Shown here piece after piece: positions 49,112 to 55,904 of a stretch of DNA of 64,000 nucleotides. Origin of the DNA: Candidatus Latescibacterota bacterium (GTDB taxonomy: Bacteria; Latescibacterota; UBA2968; UBA8231); NCBI GenBank assembly GCA_965221775.1, contig CBDCSU010000006.1:1984001-2048000 (forward strand), read 5' to 3'. The translations under genes and the position numbers were made by a program. The notes beneath the pieces were generated by a model that was not told the DNA's origin, did not search any database, and saw only the letters and a program-made list of their open reading frames with translations. Position 1 is the first letter of the stretch; each line of letters starts with the position of its first letter.

Positions 49112-50269
49112 TCAACCAGCGCGATGAACAGCAGTCGCTTCATGGCCCTCCGGCGTCTGAACCAGGGTGAGCACGGCGATCTCGGAAGGGGCGCCGAGCC
49201 GCAACGGCGGTCCCCAGTAGCCGGTGCCCCGGTGGACGTAGATCCAGGTGTCGCGAACCTTGTGCAGGCCCGCGATGAAGGGCTGCTGCAGGCGCACGGC
49301 GTACTTCCAGGGGACGAACTGGCCGCCGTGAGTGTGACCCGACAACTGCAGGTGGCAGCCGGCGCGGCTGGCCGCCTCTATGCTGCGCGGCTGGTGAGCG
49401 AGGAGGATCCGCACGTCGGCGCCGTCGCTGCCGGCGAGGGCCCCGGCCGGGTCCGACGCGTGGCCGGGGACCATCTCGCCGGCGCTGAAGTCGGTGGCCC
49501 CGGCCACGGCGAGCCGTCCGCCGCCGCGGTCGATGTGGCGCACCTCGTTGATCAGGACGTCGAAGCCGAGGCGCCGGGCCTGGGCGGTCCACTCCTCCAC
49601 GCCCGAGTAGTACTCGTGGTTGCCGGTGCAGTAATAGACCCCGAGGGGGGCGGCGAGCCGGCCCAGGGCCGCCGTGTGCGGGGCGAGCTGTTGGACGGTG
49701 CCGTCGGCGAGATCGCCGGTGAAGGCGATCAGGTCCGGCTGCAACTCCTGGACCCTGGAGACGAGGCGCTCCACGAAGGGGCCCTTGATCGTTGGGCCCA
49801 CGTGGAGATCGCTGATCTGGACGATGCGCAGCCCCGCGAGCGCGGGAGGCAGGTCCGCCACCGGGACATCGATCCGGCGGACCGCCGGAGTGCGCCGGGC
49901 CTGGTAGTAGCCAAAGGCCGCCACGCCCAGGGCGAGGGAGAAGGTCGCCAGGTCGATTCCCGCGTTGAGCCCGGGGTCGATGGGGGTGACCAGCCCCAGA
50001 AGCAGGCCCCCCAGATCGCGCAGGACCAGCAGCGTCGAGGAGACGATGAAGAAGCCCATGCCCAGGTAGGCGACCCAGGAGAGGGGATCGCTGAGCCAGG
50101 CAAGGCGGGCACGGGAGCGCAGGCGGAAGAGCAGAAAGGGCAGGAGGAGGAGGAGGACCAACGCCGATGCCGCTCCGGTCTGAGCGGGGAGAGGCAGGTA
50201 GGGGATGAGGCGCCAGCCCGAGTAGGCGTAGACGGAGGCGAGCAGCGACAGGAAGAACAGCACCAACAT
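49112..50269 (-). CDS. Membrane-anchored metallophosphoesterase (YkuE-like)
   Basis: N-terminal TM helices; SDLH, TGDLAD, GNHE, LAHQP, SGHTHGGQ, GTGYWGPPLRLGAPSEI. Confidence 0.92.
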   Translation of the reverse strand: MLVLFFLSLLASVYAYSGWRLIPYLPLPAQTGAASALVLLLLLPFLLFRLRSRARLAWLSDPLSWVAYLGMGFFIVSSTLLVLRDLGGLLLGLVTPIDPGLNAGIDLATFSLALGVAAFGYYQARRTPAVRRIDVPVADLPPALAGLRIVQISDLHVGPTIKGPFVERLVSRVQELQPDLIAFTGDLADGTVQQLAPHTAALGRLAAPLGVYYCTGNHEYYSGVEEWTAQARRLGFDVLINEVRHIDRGGGRLAVAGATDFSAGEMVPGHASDPAGALAGSDGADVRILLAHQPRSIEAASRAGCHLQLSGHTHGGQFVPWKYAVRLQQPFIAGLHKVRDTWIYVHRGTGYWGPPLRLGAPSEIAVLTLVQTPEGHEATAVHRAG

Positions 50270-50283
50270 GACAGGGCCTGTCT

Positions 50284-51474
50284 TCAGGCTCCGGTGGCTG
50301 TGGAGGACAGGGGCTCGGTGCCCTCGTCGAGCACGGCGAGGTACTCGCGGTAGACGAAGACCCTGTTGCGGCGGCCGCCGGTAACCTCCGTGGCGATGTC
50401 GAGGTCGCACAGCCGCTGAAGCCCGGTCCCGACCGTGGGGGCCGAGAGGCCCGTGCGCTCGACGACCCGCGCCACGTTGACGACGACCAGTTCGGCGAGA
50501 GCCTCGTGGATCCGGAGCGCCGAGTTCGCGCCCCGGCCGCTGGCGGCGATTCTCGATCGATCGCCCGAGGCCATGCTCAGCAGGCGCTGGGCGGTCTCGC
50601 GGGCGGAGGTGGCTACCGCGGCGACTCCCTCGAGAAAGAACTCGAGCCAGGACTCCCAGTCGCCGGTGCGCCGGACGGTGCCGAGCAGGTCGTAGTAGCG
50701 GTCGCGGTGCTTCTTGAAGTACAGGCTGAGATACAACACGGGCGACGAGAGCAGCCCGCGGTCGATCAGCATGAGGATGATCAGCATCCTTCCGGTGCGG
50801 CCGTTGCCGTCCATGAAGGGATGGATGGTCTCGAACTGGACGTGCGCCAGGCCGGCGCGCACCAGCGCCGGCAGACCGTCATCCACAGCGTGGACGAAGC
50901 GTTCCAGGTCGGACATGGCCGCGGCCGCCTCTGCCGGAGGGGGCGGGACGAAGGCGGCGTTCCCCGGCCGAGTCCCGCCGATCCAGTTCTGGGAGCGGCG
51001 GAACTCGCCCGGCCGCATGTGGCCGCCGCGGGCATCGGTGAGAAGGATCTGGTGCGCCTCGCGCAGCAGGCGGTTGCACAAGGGCAAGCCATCCTGGCCG
51101 GCGAGCCGGGTGGTGGCGTGGTCGACGGCCGCCACGTAGCGGGACACCTCGCGAAGATCGTCGAGGGGTGCACCCGGAGAACGGGCGGACTCGAAGCGCA
51201 GGAGGTCGGACAGGGAGGACTGCGTACCCTCGATCTGGGAGGACAGGACGGCTTCCTTGCGCACGTAGCTGTAGATGAACAGACCAGGGTCGGGCAGGAG
51301 GGAGGCCGCACCGTCCAGCCGCCCGAGGGCATGGGTCGCCTCCTCGAGGAGCACCTGCAGAGGCCCCGTCATCCGGAGGGGCGGCTCGGGCGGCAACGGC
51401 CGGGGAACGAAGGCTCGCACCTCTTCGTCGCCATGGGATGTGACCAGGTAGTCCCCGGTCGGACCGCGGTTCAT
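50284..51474 (-). CDS. Fic family protein with C-terminal HTH
   Basis: Canonical HPFMDGNGRTGR; N-terminal SSQIEG inhibitory motif; PGEFRRSQNWIGG. Confidence 0.93.
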   Translation of the reverse strand: MNRGPTGDYLVTSHGDEEVRAFVPRPLPPEPPLRMTGPLQVLLEEATHALGRLDGAASLLPDPGLFIYSYVRKEAVLSSQIEGTQSSLSDLLRFESARSPGAPLDDLREVSRYVAAVDHATTRLAGQDGLPLCNRLLREAHQILLTDARGGHMRPGEFRRSQNWIGGTRPGNAAFVPPPPAEAAAAMSDLERFVHAVDDGLPALVRAGLAHVQFETIHPFMDGNGRTGRMLIILMLIDRGLLSSPVLYLSLYFKKHRDRYYDLLGTVRRTGDWESWLEFFLEGVAAVATSARETAQRLLSMASGDRSRIAASGRGANSALRIHEALAELVVVNVARVVERTGLSAPTVGTGLQRLCDLDIATEVTGGRRNRVFVYREYLAVLDEGTEPLSSTATGA

Positions 51475-51622: not shown

Positions 51623-53173
51623 ATGACTCTGCCTCGTGGCGTCACCCTTCGCCTGCTCGCCCTGCTGGCCAGCACCATGCCTGCGGCCGGCCCCCTCGAC
51701 GCCCAGCTGCGGCTGACCGCTCACCACGAGTACCAGTTCGGCAACCTTCCCGACGCTGAACCGGCCGACCTGCGGGCCCTGTACCAACAGGTGAACCTCG
51801 GCTTCGAGTCCGCGGGATTCCTGGCCAGCGCCCGCAGCGAGGCCTTCCGCTCCAGCGGCGAGGACCGCGACTACCTCCATCTCGCCCAGCGGTCGCTGTC
51901 GTACCGGCACGGCGGCCTGGAGGCCACGGCCGGGCACTTCTACGCCCTCGTGGGCCGCGGTGTGCTGCTGCACGCCTTCGAGCTTCCCGGCGTCATCACC
52001 GAGGACCGCGTCTCCCGCCGGCGTTACCAGATCGTCCGCGACCTCGACGGCGCGCGGGTGAGCGGCCGGTGGCGGCAGGTGGAGGTGCTGGCCCTGCACG
52101 GCGTGCCCGTGAACAGCGAGCTGGCCCCCGGGCTGAAGGGTCTCGACCGGCGCCAGGGCCGGGTCTCCGGGGGGGCCGTCCGGGCCAGGGTGAGCCGTGA
52201 GATCGCGGTCGGGGCGGGACTGATCGAGTTCTCCTTCGGCGGGGAGGAGGAGCTCGGCGCCACCACCCACGGGGAGCTGCGCTTCGGATCCCTCCTCGAG
52301 AGGCTTGGACTGGGCGGCTGGTACGGGGATCTCTACGGCGAGTACGCCCAGATCGACCCGGCCCCGGACCGCTGGCTGTCGCTGGACCGCGACCGTTCGC
52401 GGGCCCTTTACCTGGCCGGCACCCTGACGGGCGGGGCCTGGGGCCTGAGCCTGGAGCTGAAGGACTACGACGACTTCGCCTTCCCGAGCCTCAACAACCC
52501 GCCGACGCTGATCCGGGAGCACGAGGCCTTCCTCCTCAACCGGGAGACCCACGCCCTGCTCGCCGACGACGAGACCGGGGTGCAGGCCGAGCTGACCTGG
52601 GCCCTGCCCCGCGACATCGGACTGACCGCCGCCTGGAACCTGGCCACCCGCCGGGGACCGGACCCGGGGGACGAGAAGTCCCTGCGCGAGTACTTCGTGC
52701 AGCTGGACTCCCCGGTGGGCGAGGCATTCCACGGGCAGCTGTTCCTCGATTACACGCGCAACCGCATCCTCGAGAACGAGCGCCGCCTGACCGCGGGCAC
52801 GCGCTGGGACTGGTCCGCCGGCGGACGCCACGCCGCCAGCGCCGACCTGCAGGTGCAGGACGTGGACCGGCGCTTCGGCCGCAGCGAGTTCCCCTACGAG
52901 AACCTGCTGGGAACGGTGGAGCTCAGCCGCTATCCGGCCTGGACCTGGTCCCTGCAACTGCAGAGGTCGAACGATCCCCTGGAGGCAGGGGCCTCGGAGT
53001 CGGGAGCGACGTACTGGTGGGCCCTCGGCGCCAGCTGGCGGTTCCGCGACGCCCACACGCTGGACGTCTTCGGGGGCCGGCGCAGGACGGGGCTGGCCTG
53101 CACCGGGGGCAGCTGCTACGAGGTGCTGGGCTTCGAAGGCATCGAGCTGCGCCTCACCAGCGAGGTGCTGTAG
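51623..53173 (+). CDS. DUF6029-like outer-membrane beta-barrel protein
   Basis: Signal peptide; TAGHFYALVGRGVLL, RDLDG, LELKDY, NNPPTLIREH, C-terminal GRRRTGLACTGGSCYEV..FEG; family assigned from remembered motifs. Confidence 0.72.
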   Translation: MTLPRGVTLRLLALLASTMPAAGPLDAQLRLTAHHEYQFGNLPDAEPADLRALYQQVNLGFESAGFLASARSEAFRSSGEDRDYLHLAQRSLSYRHGGLEATAGHFYALVGRGVLLHAFELPGVITEDRVSRRRYQIVRDLDGARVSGRWRQVEVLALHGVPVNSELAPGLKGLDRRQGRVSGGAVRARVSREIAVGAGLIEFSFGGEEELGATTHGELRFGSLLERLGLGGWYGDLYGEYAQIDPAPDRWLSLDRDRSRALYLAGTLTGGAWGLSLELKDYDDFAFPSLNNPPTLIREHEAFLLNRETHALLADDETGVQAELTWALPRDIGLTAAWNLATRRGPDPGDEKSLREYFVQLDSPVGEAFHGQLFLDYTRNRILENERRLTAGTRWDWSAGGRHAASADLQVQDVDRRFGRSEFPYENLLGTVELSRYPAWTWSLQLQRSNDPLEAGASESGATYWWALGASWRFRDAHTLDVFGGRRRTGLACTGGSCYEVLGFEGIELRLTSEVL

Positions 53174-53196
53174 GGGCAGGGAGCCAGCCGCGCCCC

Positions 53197-54084
53197 TTAC
53201 TTCAGCAGAGTGACCTTGCGGGCGATGGCCGCGCCCCCTTGGCGCGCGGAAGCGATGTAAACGCCGGAGGCGACCGCTTCACCGCCTTCGTCGCGCCCGT
53301 CCCAGGTCAGGGAGTGCGTCCCCGCCGCGTAGTGTCCGGACCAGGCGCGCACTACCTGCCCCCGCAGATCGAATACGGTCAGGGCCACGGGACCTGCCGT
53401 GGTCACCGTGAAGGAGAGGGTGGTCTCGGCGTTGAAGGGATTCGGCCAGGCCTCCAGGGCGAAGCCGGCGGGCACCCGGGGGGCGGCTCCCACCGCCGTG
53501 CCGATCTCCTCCTCTTCCTCTTCGACCTCCTCCAGGGCGGCGGCCAGATCGGCCAGGGCGGTGTCGATGGCCTCGCGGATCTCGCCATCGTTGTAGCGCT
53601 GGCCGAGCCTGGCGTCGGGCGACCGGTAGCGGACCACGCCCTCGTGATCGATGACGAAGTAGTAGTCCTGGACCACGCCGTAGTCCCGGGCCACCCCGGA
53701 ACCGTTGACCAGTATCGGGTAGGTCGCCAGACCGTCGTCTACCCAGATCGACTTGACGCTCGATGCCCGTCCGTCCCAGATATCGATTCCGAGGGCGATG
53801 AGCTGATCGCCCCCGTAGTCCTGCCAGACTGCCTCGGAACTCGCGGCCTCCGCGACGCAGTACGGTCAGGTGTTCCCGAGGAAGTTGATGTAGACGACCT
53901 TCTCGCCGAGGAAGTCGCCCAGCGACACGAGCTCTCCGTCCACGGTCTCGAGCTCGAAGGTGGGGGCCGTGTCGCCGGCCGCCGCCTGGGCCTCGGCCTC
54001 CCCGGCTCCGGCCACGTGAAGAGCGGTGAGGGCGATCGCCGCGCAGGCGAACGGTCCCTTCCGCAGGACGCTTCTAGCTCTCAT
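53197..54084 (-). CDS. Putative exported selenoprotein: redoxin (TlpA/AhpC-like, UxxC) plus FlgD/T9SS-like C-terminal domain, 295 aa with Sec at TGA 53868..53866
   Basis: ORFs 53866..54120 and 53197..53694 are in one frame and joined by an open stretch: GDTAPTFELETVDGELVSLGDFLGEKVVYINFLGNT-TGA-PYCVAEA...TYPILVNG...YFVIDHEGVVRY; C-terminus PNPFNAET...WDGRDEGG..VASGVY...RKVTLLK. Confidence 0.85.
53828..53865 (-). promoter_or_regulatory. Candidate bacterial SECIS element
   Basis: After UGA: UCGCGG-AGG-CCGCGA apical stem-loop (nt +11 to +25), with a possible lower stem ACUGC/GCAGU. Confidence 0.6.
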
Positions 54085-54640
54085 CGGCTTCCCCTTTCGT
54101 CGAATCCGGAACGGCCTCACCCAGCAGCTCCACCAGCCTGGCGCGCAGGCGGATCTCGTCTCCCGGCTTGTACCCGAAGTGCTTGTACACCACCTCGCCC
54201 TCCGTGGAGAGGATCAGCGACGCCGGCACCGCGGGCAGCTGGAACTGCTTCATCACCTGCCGCGAGTGATCGAGGAGGACCGGCAGCTCCAGGCGGTGGC
54301 GCTTGAGGAAGGGCCTCACCTTGGGCTGATTGCGAGGACCGTCGACATTGACGGCGTAGACCCCCACTCCGCGGTCCTCGAACTCCCTGGCGATCTTCTG
54401 CACCGCGGGCAGCCCCTTGATGCAGGGCTTGCACCAGGTGGCCCAGAAATCGAGGATCACCGGCCCCTCTTCCAGCGCCTTCTGCAGTGAGAACTCCTTG
54501 CCGTCGAGGGACGGCAGGGTGAACTGGGACTTGGCCGCCGCCGCGGCAGGCGCCGGAGGAAGGAGCACGAGGCCGAAGGCCGGCAGGATCAGCGCCATTC
54601 GGGCCATGGCCGCGAGGGCCTTGCGGTTGCTCCTGCTCAT
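54074..54640 (-). CDS. TlpA-family thiol:disulfide oxidoreductase, exported
   Basis: Signal peptide; FTLPSLDGK, VILDFWATWCKPC, AVNVD, PVLLD, VP cis-Pro loop, GYKPGDE. Confidence 0.92.
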   Translation of the reverse strand: MSRSNRKALAAMARMALILPAFGLVLLPPAPAAAAAKSQFTLPSLDGKEFSLQKALEEGPVILDFWATWCKPCIKGLPAVQKIAREFEDRGVGVYAVNVDGPRNQPKVRPFLKRHRLELPVLLDHSRQVMKQFQLPAVPASLILSTEGEVVYKHFGYKPGDEIRLRARLVELLGEAVPDSTKGEADES

Positions 54641-54665
54641 CTTCTCATCCTCCCCGGCTTCTACC

Positions 54666-55904
54666 TTATTGCCGCGGCGTCGATGCGTGCAAGGCGGCCG
54701 CGAAGTCCGACCCCGCCGGCTCCTGGTAGACGCGCAGCCCGAAGCGCGGCACCACCGCCAGCAGATGGTCGAATATGTCGGACTGGATCCCCTCGTAATC
54801 GGCCCACACCGTGGTGTTGGTGAAGACGTAGATCTCCAGGGGCAGGCCCTGGGCCGCCGGCGCCAGCTGGCGGATCAGGAAGGTCATGTCCTGGCGGATT
54901 CGGGGGTGGCTGCGCAGGTAGGCGGCCACGTAGGCCCGGAAGGTGCCCACGTTGGTCAGGCGCCGGCCGTTGACCAGCTCCGAGGCGTCGACCCGCGATT
55001 CGGCGTTGTGTTCCTCCACTTCCTTCTGACGGGAGTCCAGGTAGTCGCGGATCAGCTCGAAGCGCTCGAAGCGCTGCAGCATCTCGGCGTCGCAGAACCG
55101 GATCGAGTTCATGTCGATGTGGATGGCGCGCTTGATCCGGCGGCCGCCGCTGTCCTGCATGCCGCGCCAGTTCTTGAAGGAGACGTCCACCAGCTTGTGG
55201 GTGGGAATGGTGGTGATCGTCTTGTCCCAGTTCTGCACCTTCACCGTGTGCAGGGCGATGTCGATGACGTCGCCGTCGGCTCCGAAAGTGGGGACCTCGA
55301 TCCAGTCGCCCACCTTGACGAGCCGGTTGGAGGCGATGGTGAAGCTGGCCGTCAGCGACAGGAGGGTGTCGCGGAAGACTAGGATGACCACGGCCATGAC
55401 CGCGCCGACCCCCGAGAGCAGCACCCAGGGCGAGCGCCCCGTCAGGACCGCCACCGTCATCAGGCCGCCGATGACGTAGAGGACGATCTTGAAGATCTGG
55501 GCGTAACTCTTGATCGGAACTTCGGTGCGCGCGTCGTAGTCGGCCGTCGCCTCCTGCAGGGCGCCGACCGCGGCCCCCGCCACGAGCAGGACCACCATGA
55601 GCAGCGCGGCGTTCACCACCTGCAGGGCCGTCTCCGTCGAGCCCGGCAAACCCTCGGCGCCGTAGTAGAAGACGAGCACCGGCAGCAGCAGGGCGGCGCG
55701 GTTGAGGACGCCCTGGTGCAGCAGCACGTCGTCGAGCTTGGTGCTGCTCGCCTGGATCAGGTGGGACATGGCGCGCAGCAGCACCCTGCGGGCCAGGAGG
55801 TGGGCCACCCAGGCGACCAGGAAGAGACCGGCGGTGTAGGTCGCCTGGCCCTTCAGGGGATGCTCGGCGAACCACAGCGTCAGGGCCTCGATGAACTCGG
55901 GCAT
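54666..55904 (-). CDS. Mechanosensitive channel, MscS family (YbdG-like)
   Basis: VKVGDWIE, ADGDVIDIALHTVKVQNWDKTITTIPT, FKNWRGMQ.SGGRRIKR, TNVGTFRAY, YEGIQSDIFDH. Confidence 0.93.
   Translation of the reverse strand: MPEFIEALTLWFAEHPLKGQATYTAGLFLVAWVAHLLARRVLLRAMSHLIQASSTKLDDVLLHQGVLNRAALLLPVLVFYYGAEGLPGSTETALQVVNAALLMVVLLVAGAAVGALQEATADYDARTEVPIKSYAQIFKIVLYVIGGLMTVAVLTGRSPWVLLSGVGAVMAVVILVFRDTLLSLTASFTIASNRLVKVGDWIEVPTFGADGDVIDIALHTVKVQNWDKTITTIPTHKLVDVSFKNWRGMQDSGGRRIKRAIHIDMNSIRFCDAEMLQRFERFELIRDYLDSRQKEVEEHNAESRVDASELVNGRRLTNVGTFRAYVAAYLRSHPRIRQDMTFLIRQLAPAAQGLPLEIYVFTNTTVWADYEGIQSDIFDHLLAVVPRFGLRVYQEPAGSDFAAALHASTPRQ

Follow-up and report, generated by a model that had tools for sequence, protein, structure and literature searches.

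Does a reverse-strand interval of a Latescibacterota-like genome encode two short proteins separated by a stop codon, or a single selenoprotein that is read through at that codon? We examined this at positions 53197..54084 of the window, i.e. the whole stretch of 64,000 nucleotides that was analysed, which belongs to a Latescibacterota-like MAG whose organism occurs mostly in sponge metagenomes.

One reading frame with a single in-frame TGA

In the ORF listing the gene appears as two fragments, one of 84 aa (53866..54120) and one of 165 aa (53197..53694). Both had been taken, from the letters alone, for parts of one frame with a single TGA, and the read-through translation agrees with this: the whole gene (53197..54084, minus strand) starts with an ATG at 54084 and comprises 295 open codons followed by a TAA stop, while the sole in-frame TGA lies at 53868..53866 and corresponds to codon 73. 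It had also been predicted that standard annotation would split the gene, and it does so, since all 35 matches of the database protein search were fragments of 162–219 aa, one of them named merely "T9SS type A sorting domain-containing protein". The split by the gene callers is a confirmed observation, and the evidence supports the interpretation that it hides one putatively exported thioredoxin-like enzyme with an active-site selenocysteine and a secretion tail. Large ORFs of the opposite strand, e.g. 53017..54306 (plus strand, 429 aa), were discarded as by-products of the 70% GC content.

We assigned codon 73 (53866..53868, minus strand) as a putative selenocysteine codon at the nucleophilic position of a U-P-Y-C motif, based on the homolog column and on the alignment with the adjacent TlpA-like protein. 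The sequence-only reading had placed the TGA exactly at the nucleophilic Cys of that neighbour, and BLASTP recovered the same correspondence, with a gapless alignment over 48 residues (E 4e-4) in which codon 73 was paired with the first Cys of WCKPC. Cys76 (TGC; 53857..53859, minus strand), the presumed resolving Cys of the UxxC motif, was invariant in alignment A3.

Reads over the codon had been proposed as a check, and here an independent DNA contig from another study (X5, 53512..54109) showed 0 differences to the window across the TGA. Strict confirmation of the codon comes from X5 only; a contig of X18 had 1 difference, whose position is not among the 40 of 78 differences that are listed, and the contigs of X18 and X5 cover parts of the stretch, with none spanning the whole. 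Contigs from RNA libraries also bridge the TGA codon, with contaminating DNA as a possible source.

Conservation of the TGA and its probable decoding as selenocysteine

We then compared the codon across homologs. In alignment A3, the Sec column was TGA in 17 out of 18 homologs and Cys in the remaining one. A scan of contigs covering 80 loci gave TGA in 22 out of 22 alignments with the family motif, together with a related Cys form in a locus labelled Eisenbacteria. In the scan of the phylum, the family was matched in 110 out of 168 genomes (E <= 1e-18), often in 2–4 copies, and among the 150 matches listed exactly one TGA was present in 137 and none in 9. Out of 16 examined phylum loci, 15 could be aligned (19 rows), with TGA in the Sec column of 13 rows and TGT in 6. 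The Cys paralogues or orthologues at this column comprise L019:85-579, L058 and these 6 TGT rows. The search for relatives that started from the 6-row alignment A5 used one pattern with Cys at the Sec position, which finds Cys forms only, and the TGA forms came through a second pattern. The tabulation of TGA against Cys that had been suggested for this codon is in favour of selenocysteine: homologs keep the TGA and Cys forms are the exception. Across more than 100 genomes, and at identities as low as about 25%, the reading frame was preserved together with the TGA column and the motif around it, and the recurrence of the same TGA in the same column of dozens of independent genomes is not due to chance. 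Within the own genus, the phylum scan found no family match in 5 out of 10 genomes.

A reassignment of the TGA codon was rejected, since members of the same gene family terminate with TGA: in the same redoxin family it is a genuine stop after a terminal ...LLLR. Recoding is thus context-dependent.

The presence of selenocysteine machinery in the genome, on which the earlier interpretation depended, was confirmed. We detected selA (489 bits), selB (wing domain, 57 bits), the tRNA-Sec gene (selC) and selD (353 bits), which itself contains a TGA. The 2.6-Mb contig that carries the window also holds selA, selB and tRNA-Sec.

Starting 11 nt after the UGA, we identified a SECIS-like hairpin of 6 bp (UCGCGG-AGG-CCGCGA; 53841..53855, minus strand) that is backed by covariation: 92.7% of the cells were paired, 4 out of 6 pairs showed a compensatory change, and 0 out of 500 shuffles attained the observed value. 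Synonymous sites were frozen within the hairpin (Ala GCG in 21 out of 21, Glu GAG in 15 out of 15, Ala GCC in 21 out of 24 and Ala GCG in 18 out of 20), whereas the conserved codons that flank it vary (four codons for Gly; TGC 11 and TGT 13 for Cys; GAG 8 and GAA 16 for Glu). Part of the conservation is protein-driven, since the hairpin overlaps the conserved codons C-V/I-A-E-A-A. When the 91 nt surrounding the TGA were folded with RNAfold, z was -1.88, a value that is not decisive alone; the longer outer stem that it proposed was dropped because it was not conserved in homologs, and only the 6-bp hairpin was kept. The Rfam scan of 53700..53950 at E <= 10 returned no SECIS match, only a chance snoRNA match, which says little given that Rfam is not known to hold a general bacterial SECIS model. 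The candidate resembles the SECIS of E. coli fdhF type in being a hairpin within the coding sequence, immediately 3' of the UGA, with a G in the apical loop, and in class-level relatives the loop contains GGUC (GGACG-GGUC-CGUCC), which we take to be the loop sequence of the fdhF SECIS. It differs from fdhF in that the putative hairpin is shorter (6 bp counted) and is matched by no curated model. With its frozen codons, it offers a compact candidate SECIS from a phylum without a curated model.

The possibility that the TGA is an ordinary stop, leaving a gene for a 72-residue secreted peptide and a separate gene for the C-terminal domain, or else a pseudogene or an assembly error, is strongly disfavoured: gene callers do treat the codon in this way, but the split would cut the thioredoxin fold at its active site, and the conserved frame, column and motif, the Cys that replaces the TGA in rare paralogues, the identical contig of the other study, and the Sec machinery with its covarying hairpin all argue against it.

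Domain architecture and relation to known redoxins

The read-through protein begins with a putative signal peptide (residues 1–32; 53989..54084, minus strand), recognised by eye as MRARSVLRK, a hydrophobic core and a probable cleavage site at AEA|Q. The N-termini of homologs have the same layout, and residues 1–30 have pLDDT <50 in the AF2 model. A lipoprotein anchored via Cys14 was rejected, given the context P-F-A-C and a Cys that is not conserved among homologs. The signal peptide is followed by a TlpA/ResA-like redoxin domain of thioredoxin fold (residues 37–185; 53530..53976, minus strand), an acidic low-confidence linker with EEVEEEEEE (residues 186–205; 53470..53529, minus strand; pLDDT <50 for residues 188–204) and a C-terminal beta-sandwich of T9SS type A sorting or FlgD_ig-like type (residues 208–295; 53200..53463, minus strand). 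The linker and the PNPFN...WDGRD...SGVY...KVTLLK tail, which had been read from the sequence beforehand, were both present in the read-through translation.

The redoxin domain was recovered by Pfam, by a PDB profile search and by Foldseek. AhpC-TSA matched residues 37–153 (E 2.6e-15; 56.9 bits, cut-off 26) and Redoxin scored 52 bits (cut-off 26.6), and both matches span the TGA. In the PDB profile search the best matches were of the TlpA/ResA class (3kcm, E 4e-20; ResA), and Foldseek gave ResA with E 8e-10 and TMt 0.81–0.84. The scores for the NCBIfam subfamilies were below cut-off (ResA 36.9 against 170 bits; DsbE 20.3 against 123), and the domain probably belongs to the superfamily rather than to the named ResA and DsbE subfamilies. 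In the AF2 model, U73 lies immediately before or at the N-terminus of helix 74–90, and P123, probably the cis-Pro, was invariant in alignment A3. The protein shares with ResA, TlpA and CcmG (DsbE) the fold, the active site at the N-terminus of helix 1, the invariant P123 at the cis-Pro loop and a putative extracytoplasmic signal; it differs from them in having Sec for the first Cys, no Trp before the motif and a fused C-terminal sorting domain, and its gene lies outside any cytochrome c maturation operon.

The enzymatic role of the domain could also be another one. That the protein serves chiefly to reduce peroxides or scavenge oxidants, using Sec in the manner of Prx and GPx, instead of reducing or isomerising disulfides, appears unlikely. 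AhpC/TSA is the top match in Pfam, Foldseek retrieves the peroxiredoxins AhpE and Bcp with E values near 1e-9, on a par with ResA, and Sec is established as typical of peroxide-reducing enzymes (review PMC13188914). Against this, the motif is a thioredoxin-type UxxC and the closest sequence matches in PDB are of the TlpA/ResA class. The peroxiredoxin motifs PxxxTxxC and TxxU are absent: the motif here reads G-x-x-U-x-x-C, in which the position preceding U is variable among homologs (T, S, N, G, D).

UxxC selenoproteins with a thioredoxin fold had been called established, and they are on record as a long-predicted "Prx-like" family (PMC1088965, PMC13188914). The protein shares with the "Prx-like thiol:disulfide oxidoreductase" selenoproteins the AhpC/TSA-Redoxin domain and the replacement of CxxC by UxxC (available parts of PMC13188914, PMC9312934 and PMC1088965), and in both cases the evidence consists of computational predictions. 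Its placement in that family follows the family definition (PF00578 with UxxC) in those same portions. A second, more classical-looking member in the same genome, with the motif FYRGFF-U-GFC, is only 37% identical to it (residues 13–139, E 4.4e-6). The protein differs from the family as described there in its motif [FIL]xG[YFNWH]x-U-xxC, which lacks the Trp of WCxxC, in its T9SS-type tail and in having TlpA and DUF6029 as fixed neighbours. Among the NCBIfam models, none that is specific to selenoproteins fitted, and WAxxUGC_long scored 19.9 bits (cut-off 300).

The available portions of PMC13188914, PMC9312934 and PMC1088965 make no mention of a signal peptide, a sorting domain, Latescibacterota or Gemmatimonadota, and supplements of these surveys could list members. 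A literature search for selenoprotein or selenocysteine with type IX secretion or T9SS found no published selenoprotein cargo among papers that were judged partly from title and abstract. The earlier reading did not know the architecture as characterised, and what is new is indeed the architecture for surface targeting, along with the expansion of the family through the phylum; the redox core is not new, since "Prx-like" UxxC selenoproteins have long been predicted.

Probable export, neighbouring genes and proposed mechanism

We consider it probable, from the combined sequence evidence, that the locus encodes one exported Sec redoxin whose UGA would be recoded via SelB, tRNA-Sec and the hairpin, and which is likely routed to the surface as T9SS-like cargo. 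The C-terminal domain passed the NCBIfam model TIGR04183, "T9SS type A sorting domain" (31.3 bits, cut-off 23), and Pfam FlgD_ig (residues 221–280; 36 bits, cut-off 27), and remained below the cut-off of Pfam Por_Secre_tail (19.4 bits, cut-off 27). It formed seven strands in the AF2 model, with pLDDT about 83. In the genome we detected SprA (612 bits summed, over cut-off), PorU twice (580 and 542 bits, both over cut-off) and, beside one PorU, a PorV-like gene (148 bits, cut-off 250), and another 97 places matched the C-terminal domain of the selenoprotein. GldK scored 100.9 bits (cut-off 350). The models for GldL (TIGR03513) and GldM (TIGR03517, PF12081) had no match in the genome; they are built on Bacteroidota and matched no control genome, and these negatives are thus weak and do not amount to absence. 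As in Bacteroidota T9SS type A cargo, a putative N-terminal signal peptide is combined with a C-terminal domain, about 80 residues long, that scores above the TIGR04183 cut-off, and, as in Bacteroidota, the genome holds many proteins with such domains together with SprA, PorU and a PorV-like gene; it differs in its Latescibacterota-like host and in that the above models did not detect a GldK/L/M motor and ring. The routing to the surface that had been proposed for this protein is thus favoured by TIGR04183, SprA, PorU and the PorV-like gene, while GldL, GldM and the sub-threshold GldK weigh on the other side, and it stays a likely route.

It is possible, if on the unlikely side, that the protein is a real selenoprotein that stays in the periplasm, where the C-terminal beta-sandwich would be a binding or anchoring domain and the enzyme would act like TlpA or ResA and be reduced via CcdA/DsbD. 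The results for GldK, GldL and GldM and the sub-threshold PorV are in line with this, as are the higher Pfam score of the C-terminal domain for FlgD_ig than for Por_Secre_tail and the translational coupling to a periplasmic-type TlpA. Furthermore, a DsbD_TM protein in the genome (77 bits) means that a periplasmic electron supply exists, whereas beyond the outer membrane a redoxin has no known electron donor. Against a periplasmic enzyme stand TIGR04183 above its cut-off, SprA, the two PorU and the 97 places with the C-terminal domain, which favour a working cargo system, and paralogues that carry typically extracellular modules: elsewhere in the phylum the N-terminal Sec-redoxin module is fused to dockerin/EF-hand-like repeats, to DUF1573/ASH Ig repeats (14 Ig repeats), to LRRs and to a beta-lactamase-family domain.

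The genes around the selenoprotein recur with it. A Cys-type TlpA-like gene (WCKPC; 54074..54640, minus strand) lies directly upstream, its stop overlapping the selenoprotein start by 11 nt, and such a gene is conserved directly upstream in 17 out of 20 loci. On the other side lies a DUF6029 outer-membrane beta-barrel gene (51623..53173, plus strand; Pfam PF19494, E 2.5e-16), which is likewise present in 17 out of 20 loci. The AF2 model of DUF6029 is a barrel (pTM 0.71), and alignment A7 contains an invariant Cys pair (C493/C498) that is predicted to lie in the last extracellular loop. Judging from synteny only, the Cys-TlpA and the DUF6029 barrel are the most likely redox partners or substrate of the selenoprotein, and these fixed neighbours provide a first functional handle on DUF6029.

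For the surface-routed Sec redoxin, the mechanism would be as follows. SelB and tRNA-Sec would insert selenocysteine at UGA codon 73, with the short G-rich-loop hairpin as guide, and the Sec-type signal peptide would likely direct export through SecYEG to the periplasm. The C-terminal domain may then be recognised by a SprA/PorV/PorU-like machinery, with release to the surface or anchoring on it, where the protein could work as a fast thiol-disulfide (selenol) oxidoreductase: the U73 selenolate would attack the disulfide of a substrate, or else oxidised sulfur species, and the selenenylsulfide would be resolved by C76. The translationally coupled periplasmic Cys-TlpA could be reduced by the CcdA/DsbD-type transporter of the genome.

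A selenoenzyme as T9SS-like cargo would, if true, bring catalysis by selenium to the cell surface or beyond it; the bacterial selenoproteins known from experimental work are cytoplasmic or, like the Tat-exported formate dehydrogenase, periplasmic. It would also raise the questions of how the selenenylsulfide is re-reduced and which substrate is present in the sponge matrix. Among the PDB matches (4hqs, 4hqz, 2yp6) are the pneumococcal surface lipoproteins Etrx1 and Etrx2, thioredoxin-family redoxins outside the cytoplasmic membrane that act with CcdA and MsrAB2 in repair under extracellular oxidative stress; they differ in being Cys enzymes that are lipid-anchored in a Gram-positive envelope, without Sec or a C-terminal sorting domain.

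A further and speculative step, which we regard as quite improbable, would join the TlpA, the DUF6029 barrel and the T9SS-tailed Sec redoxin in a thiol/selenol relay across the outer membrane, in which electrons would pass from CcdA/DsbD to TlpA and on to the cell surface and the selenoenzyme would perform extracellular redox reactions for a sponge symbiont. Taken more widely, Latescibacterota might deploy a whole set of selenoenzymes outside the cell, in which Sec-redoxin heads are joined to bodies of dockerin-like, Ig-repeat, LRR or hydrolase type.

The size of the selenoproteome and the selenium dependence of the phylum are underestimated, given that all matches of the database search were fragments although the family is present in 110 of the 168 genomes.

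A redoxin frame interrupted by one TGA

On the reverse strand of the window, positions 54084..53197 form one frame of 295 codons that ends in TAA, and its sole interruption is a TGA at codon 73 (53868..53866). The sequence-only reading had proposed this arrangement from two same-frame ORF pieces, which are the 84-aa and 165-aa pieces of a table 11 ORF listing. The Pfam domains AhpC-TSA (residues 37–153, E 2.6e-15) and Redoxin both cross the TGA. BLASTP aligned the product without gaps to the adjacent TlpA-like gene (54640..54074, reverse strand), placing codon 73 opposite the first Cys of WCKPC, the nucleophilic Cys as that reading had claimed. FlgD_ig covers residues 221–280, and the tail matched the T9SS type A sorting domain TIGR04183 of NCBIfam (31.3 bits, cut-off 23), with Por_Secre_tail of Pfam under its cut-off. 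By eye, the N-terminus (MRARSVLRK, a hydrophobic stretch and AEA|Q) looks like a Sec-type signal peptide, and those of the homologs look alike. The earlier description, with its redoxin-like stretch across the TGA and its FlgD/T9SS-like C-terminal domain, was accurate in all checkable details.

Against the PDB, the redoxin-domain profile matched the TlpA/ResA class first (3kcm, E 4e-20, then 2ls5 and ResA). The AF2 model had a mean pLDDT of 75.5 (80–95 in the redoxin domain, ~83 in the tail, <50 in residues 1–30 and 188–204), and U73 directly precedes helix 74–90. The best Foldseek match was ResA (E 8e-10, TMt 0.81–0.84), with the peroxiredoxins AhpE and Bcp close after. The PxxxTxxC motif of peroxiredoxins is absent, and the residue preceding U varies. 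Invariant residues include G70, U73, C76, E84, Q88, G99, P123 and D146.

Conservation and decoding of the TGA

When 41 related genomes were searched in six frames, many genera yielded matches, either full-length or over the redoxin domain, that contained a single in-frame TGA, at identities from 95% down to ~36%. Codon 73 was TGA in 17 rows of an 18-sequence alignment and Cys in one, a paralogue adjoining a Sec copy. A wider scan took one genome from each species and retained 80 loci; the family motif F/L-x-G-x-x-U-x-x-C was present in 22 alignments, all of them with TGA. One record labelled Eisenbacteria contained a related Cys form, LFGYNCPFCL, and remoter generic TlpA matches carried Cys. 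The profile search of the phylum (E <= 1e-18) found the family in 110 of 168 genomes, and among the 150 matches listed 137 had one TGA, nine none, one TGA plus TAG, one TAA and two TAG. Sixteen of these places were retrieved and 15 aligned, giving 19 rows with TGA in 13 and TGT in six. TGA predominates over Cys codons in the relatives.

Reassignment of TGA in the family was rejected: in many members TGA is also the true stop after a terminal ...LLLR, so it is read by context. An independent DNA contig from another study (53512..54109) showed 0 differences from the window over the TGA codon and its surroundings. Contigs from two metatranscriptome libraries also bridge the codon, though RNA libraries may contain DNA; the contig comparison gave 78 differences, 40 of them among those listed.

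The window's own 2.6-Mb contig carries a cluster (C6:935871-939083) of selA (489 bits), selB (57 bits for its wing domain) and the gene for tRNA-Sec (selC). The genome also has selD (C5:959676-960599, reverse strand, 353 bits), which itself contains an in-frame TGA (…TCG-U-AAK…), and its predicted product is a Sec-containing SelD.

A hairpin, UCGCGG-AGG-CCGCGA (53855..53841, reverse strand), begins 11 nt 3' of the UGA. Across 36 sequences of the family, 25 of them distinct, 92.7% of its cells were paired, with compensatory changes in four of six pairs, and the observed values were reached by 0 of 500 shuffles; slid out of register, 31–52% of cells pair. A smaller set of 15 sequences gave 94% pairing (2/500 shuffles). 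Since the hairpin overlaps conserved codons, synonymous sites were compared. Inside it, Ala, Glu, Ala and Ala were encoded by GCG (21/21), GAG (15/15), GCC (21/24) and GCG (18/20), whereas the flanking Gly used four codons (6/6/3/9), Cys used TGC 11 and TGT 13 times, and Glu used GAG 8 and GAA 16 times. Such nearly frozen codons, next to variation at equally conserved residues outside, are the signature expected of RNA-level constraint. Class-level relatives have another hairpin, GGACG-GGUC-CGUCC, at equal distance from the UGA, and Rfam gave no match at the hairpin region. We consider this almost certainly a genuine selenoprotein gene, truncated by gene callers in every database match seen: all 35 matches in a collection of 5.8 billion proteins were fragments of 162–219 aa (one named 'T9SS type A sorting domain-containing protein'), as had been foreseen for standard annotation.

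Tandem arrays at three related loci (L132, L133 and L019) mix Sec and Cys redoxin paralogues, L132 with one Cys and two Sec copies; in the Cys copies the downstream hairpin is partly retained, suggesting that Sec and Cys were switched recently. One paralogue (L055, G017:C1:4136753-4137181), probably in decay, carries a TAG at the second codon upstream of its Sec TGA (FFG*D*HFCG); three further copies in that genome each have a single TGA. A separate TlpA-like selenoprotein group with TGA, FWG[DNFT]W-U-[GRP]PC[RV] (e.g. FWGDW-U-GPCR; L095, L097, L102, L105, L107, L108, L110, L111 and L113), came mostly from MAGs labelled Planctomycetota, with one Pedosphaera and one unclassified.

Probable export, swapped modules and neighbouring genes

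The selenoprotein is very likely exported. The sequence-only reading had routed it to the surface or exterior, and we regard routing via a T9SS-like system as probable. Besides the TIGR04183 tail, the genome has an SprA-like translocon (612 bits summed), two sortases of the PorU type (580 and 542 bits against a cut-off of 420) and, adjoining one of these, a PorV-like barrel that stayed under its cut-off (148 bits, cut-off 250); GldK too stayed under its cut-off (100.9 bits, cut-off 350). The GldL and GldM models found no match in the genome, a weak negative, as they matched no control genome either. The tail matched 97 further places in the genome (of 101 matches, one was the gene itself and three the redoxin part only).

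In some homologs the tail is replaced by dockerin/EF-hand-like DFDGDG...FFLFA repeats (Dockerin_1 22.3 bits, cut-off 22.9), by 1 to 14 DUF1573/ASH Ig-like repeats or by LRR arrays, and others keep the tail but place a beta-lactamase-family domain before it. Because of the TIGR04183 tail, the SprA-, PorU- and PorV-like genes and these swapped extracytoplasmic modules, surface or extracellular display would be the best reading of the family. Two very large proteins of one relative (L138 and L128, both G114:C1), of 1691 and 1173 aa when called from the first start codon, share the signal peptide and Sec-redoxin start; this is followed by 14 DUF1573/ASH Ig-like repeats in one and by LRR arrays in the other, and L138 ends in dockerin/EF-hand-like repeats.

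Across 20 loci (~32–100% identity to the window's protein), 17 had a Cys-type TlpA gene immediately upstream in the same orientation, and a DUF6029 gene (51623..53173, forward strand, in the window; Pfam E 2.5e-16) was present in 17. In the window, the 3' end of the TlpA gene, stop codon included, overlaps the beginning of the selenoprotein gene by 11 nt. DUF6029 was modelled as a large beta-barrel (pTM 0.71) with generic Foldseek resemblance to 18–24-stranded outer-membrane barrels, and one paper suggests a similarity to Wzi (PMC9603273). Its C493 and C498 (C-x4-C), invariant in 13 homologs, lie just before the last strand, in a mini-hairpin modelled with low confidence that joins this strand to the penultimate one; by usual barrel topology it would be an extracellular loop. 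Most DUF6029 homologs end in …RFF. A DsbD_TM/CcdA-type protein is encoded elsewhere in the genome. Beyond DUF6029, a Fic/DOC-family protein (50284..51474, reverse strand; Fic_N plus Fic; NCBIfam SoFic-like 157 bits, under cut-off) adjoins a calcineurin-like phosphoesterase (49112..50410, reverse strand).

Relation to known selenoproteins and habitat

The redox core is an already known predicted kind. The accessible parts of selenoprotein reviews and of the Sargasso Sea survey list, as predicted families, UxxC 'Prx-like' proteins (PF00578), where the window gene belongs by domain and motif, together with 'Thiol-disulfide isomerase-like' (cd02966) and 'Redoxin family' (PF08534) proteins (PMC13188914, PMC9312934, PMC1088965); those parts do not mention signal peptides, sorting, Latescibacter or Gemmatimonad. 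NCBIfam had no selenoprotein model fitting the protein. Among the papers listed we found no related work on selenoproteins or selenocysteine with type IX secretion (partly by title and abstract) or on selenoproteins of sponge symbiont metagenomes (by title and abstract), and nothing linking Latescibacteria with type IX secretion; PMC8318568, one of three papers that mention both selenoproteins and Latescibacteria, names the phylum solely when enumerating reconstructed genomes. What is new is the joining of a Sec-redoxin head to surface-display modules, the spread and expansion of this architecture across a candidate phylum, and its conserved TlpA and DUF6029 neighbours. A second UxxC selenoprotein of the genome (C4:1127523-1127900, reverse strand), AhpC/TSA-like with a lipoprotein-like signal (…LAGC) and FYRGFF-U-GFC, has a classical 'Prx-like' look and is only 37% identical to the window gene over residues 13–139.

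The stretch 53150..54700 occurs in 20 run rows from nine studies, mostly labelled sponge metagenome, and strain variants ~94% alike were present in a metatranscriptome library. The nearest named records in the locus scan were MAGs labelled Candidatus Latescibacterota, and some Gemmatimonadaceae or Gemmatimonadota. Long opposite-strand ORFs (53017..54306, forward strand, 429 aa; others of 1272 and 1648 aa) overlap real genes and were rejected as genes; they are typical by-products of the genome's ~70% GC.
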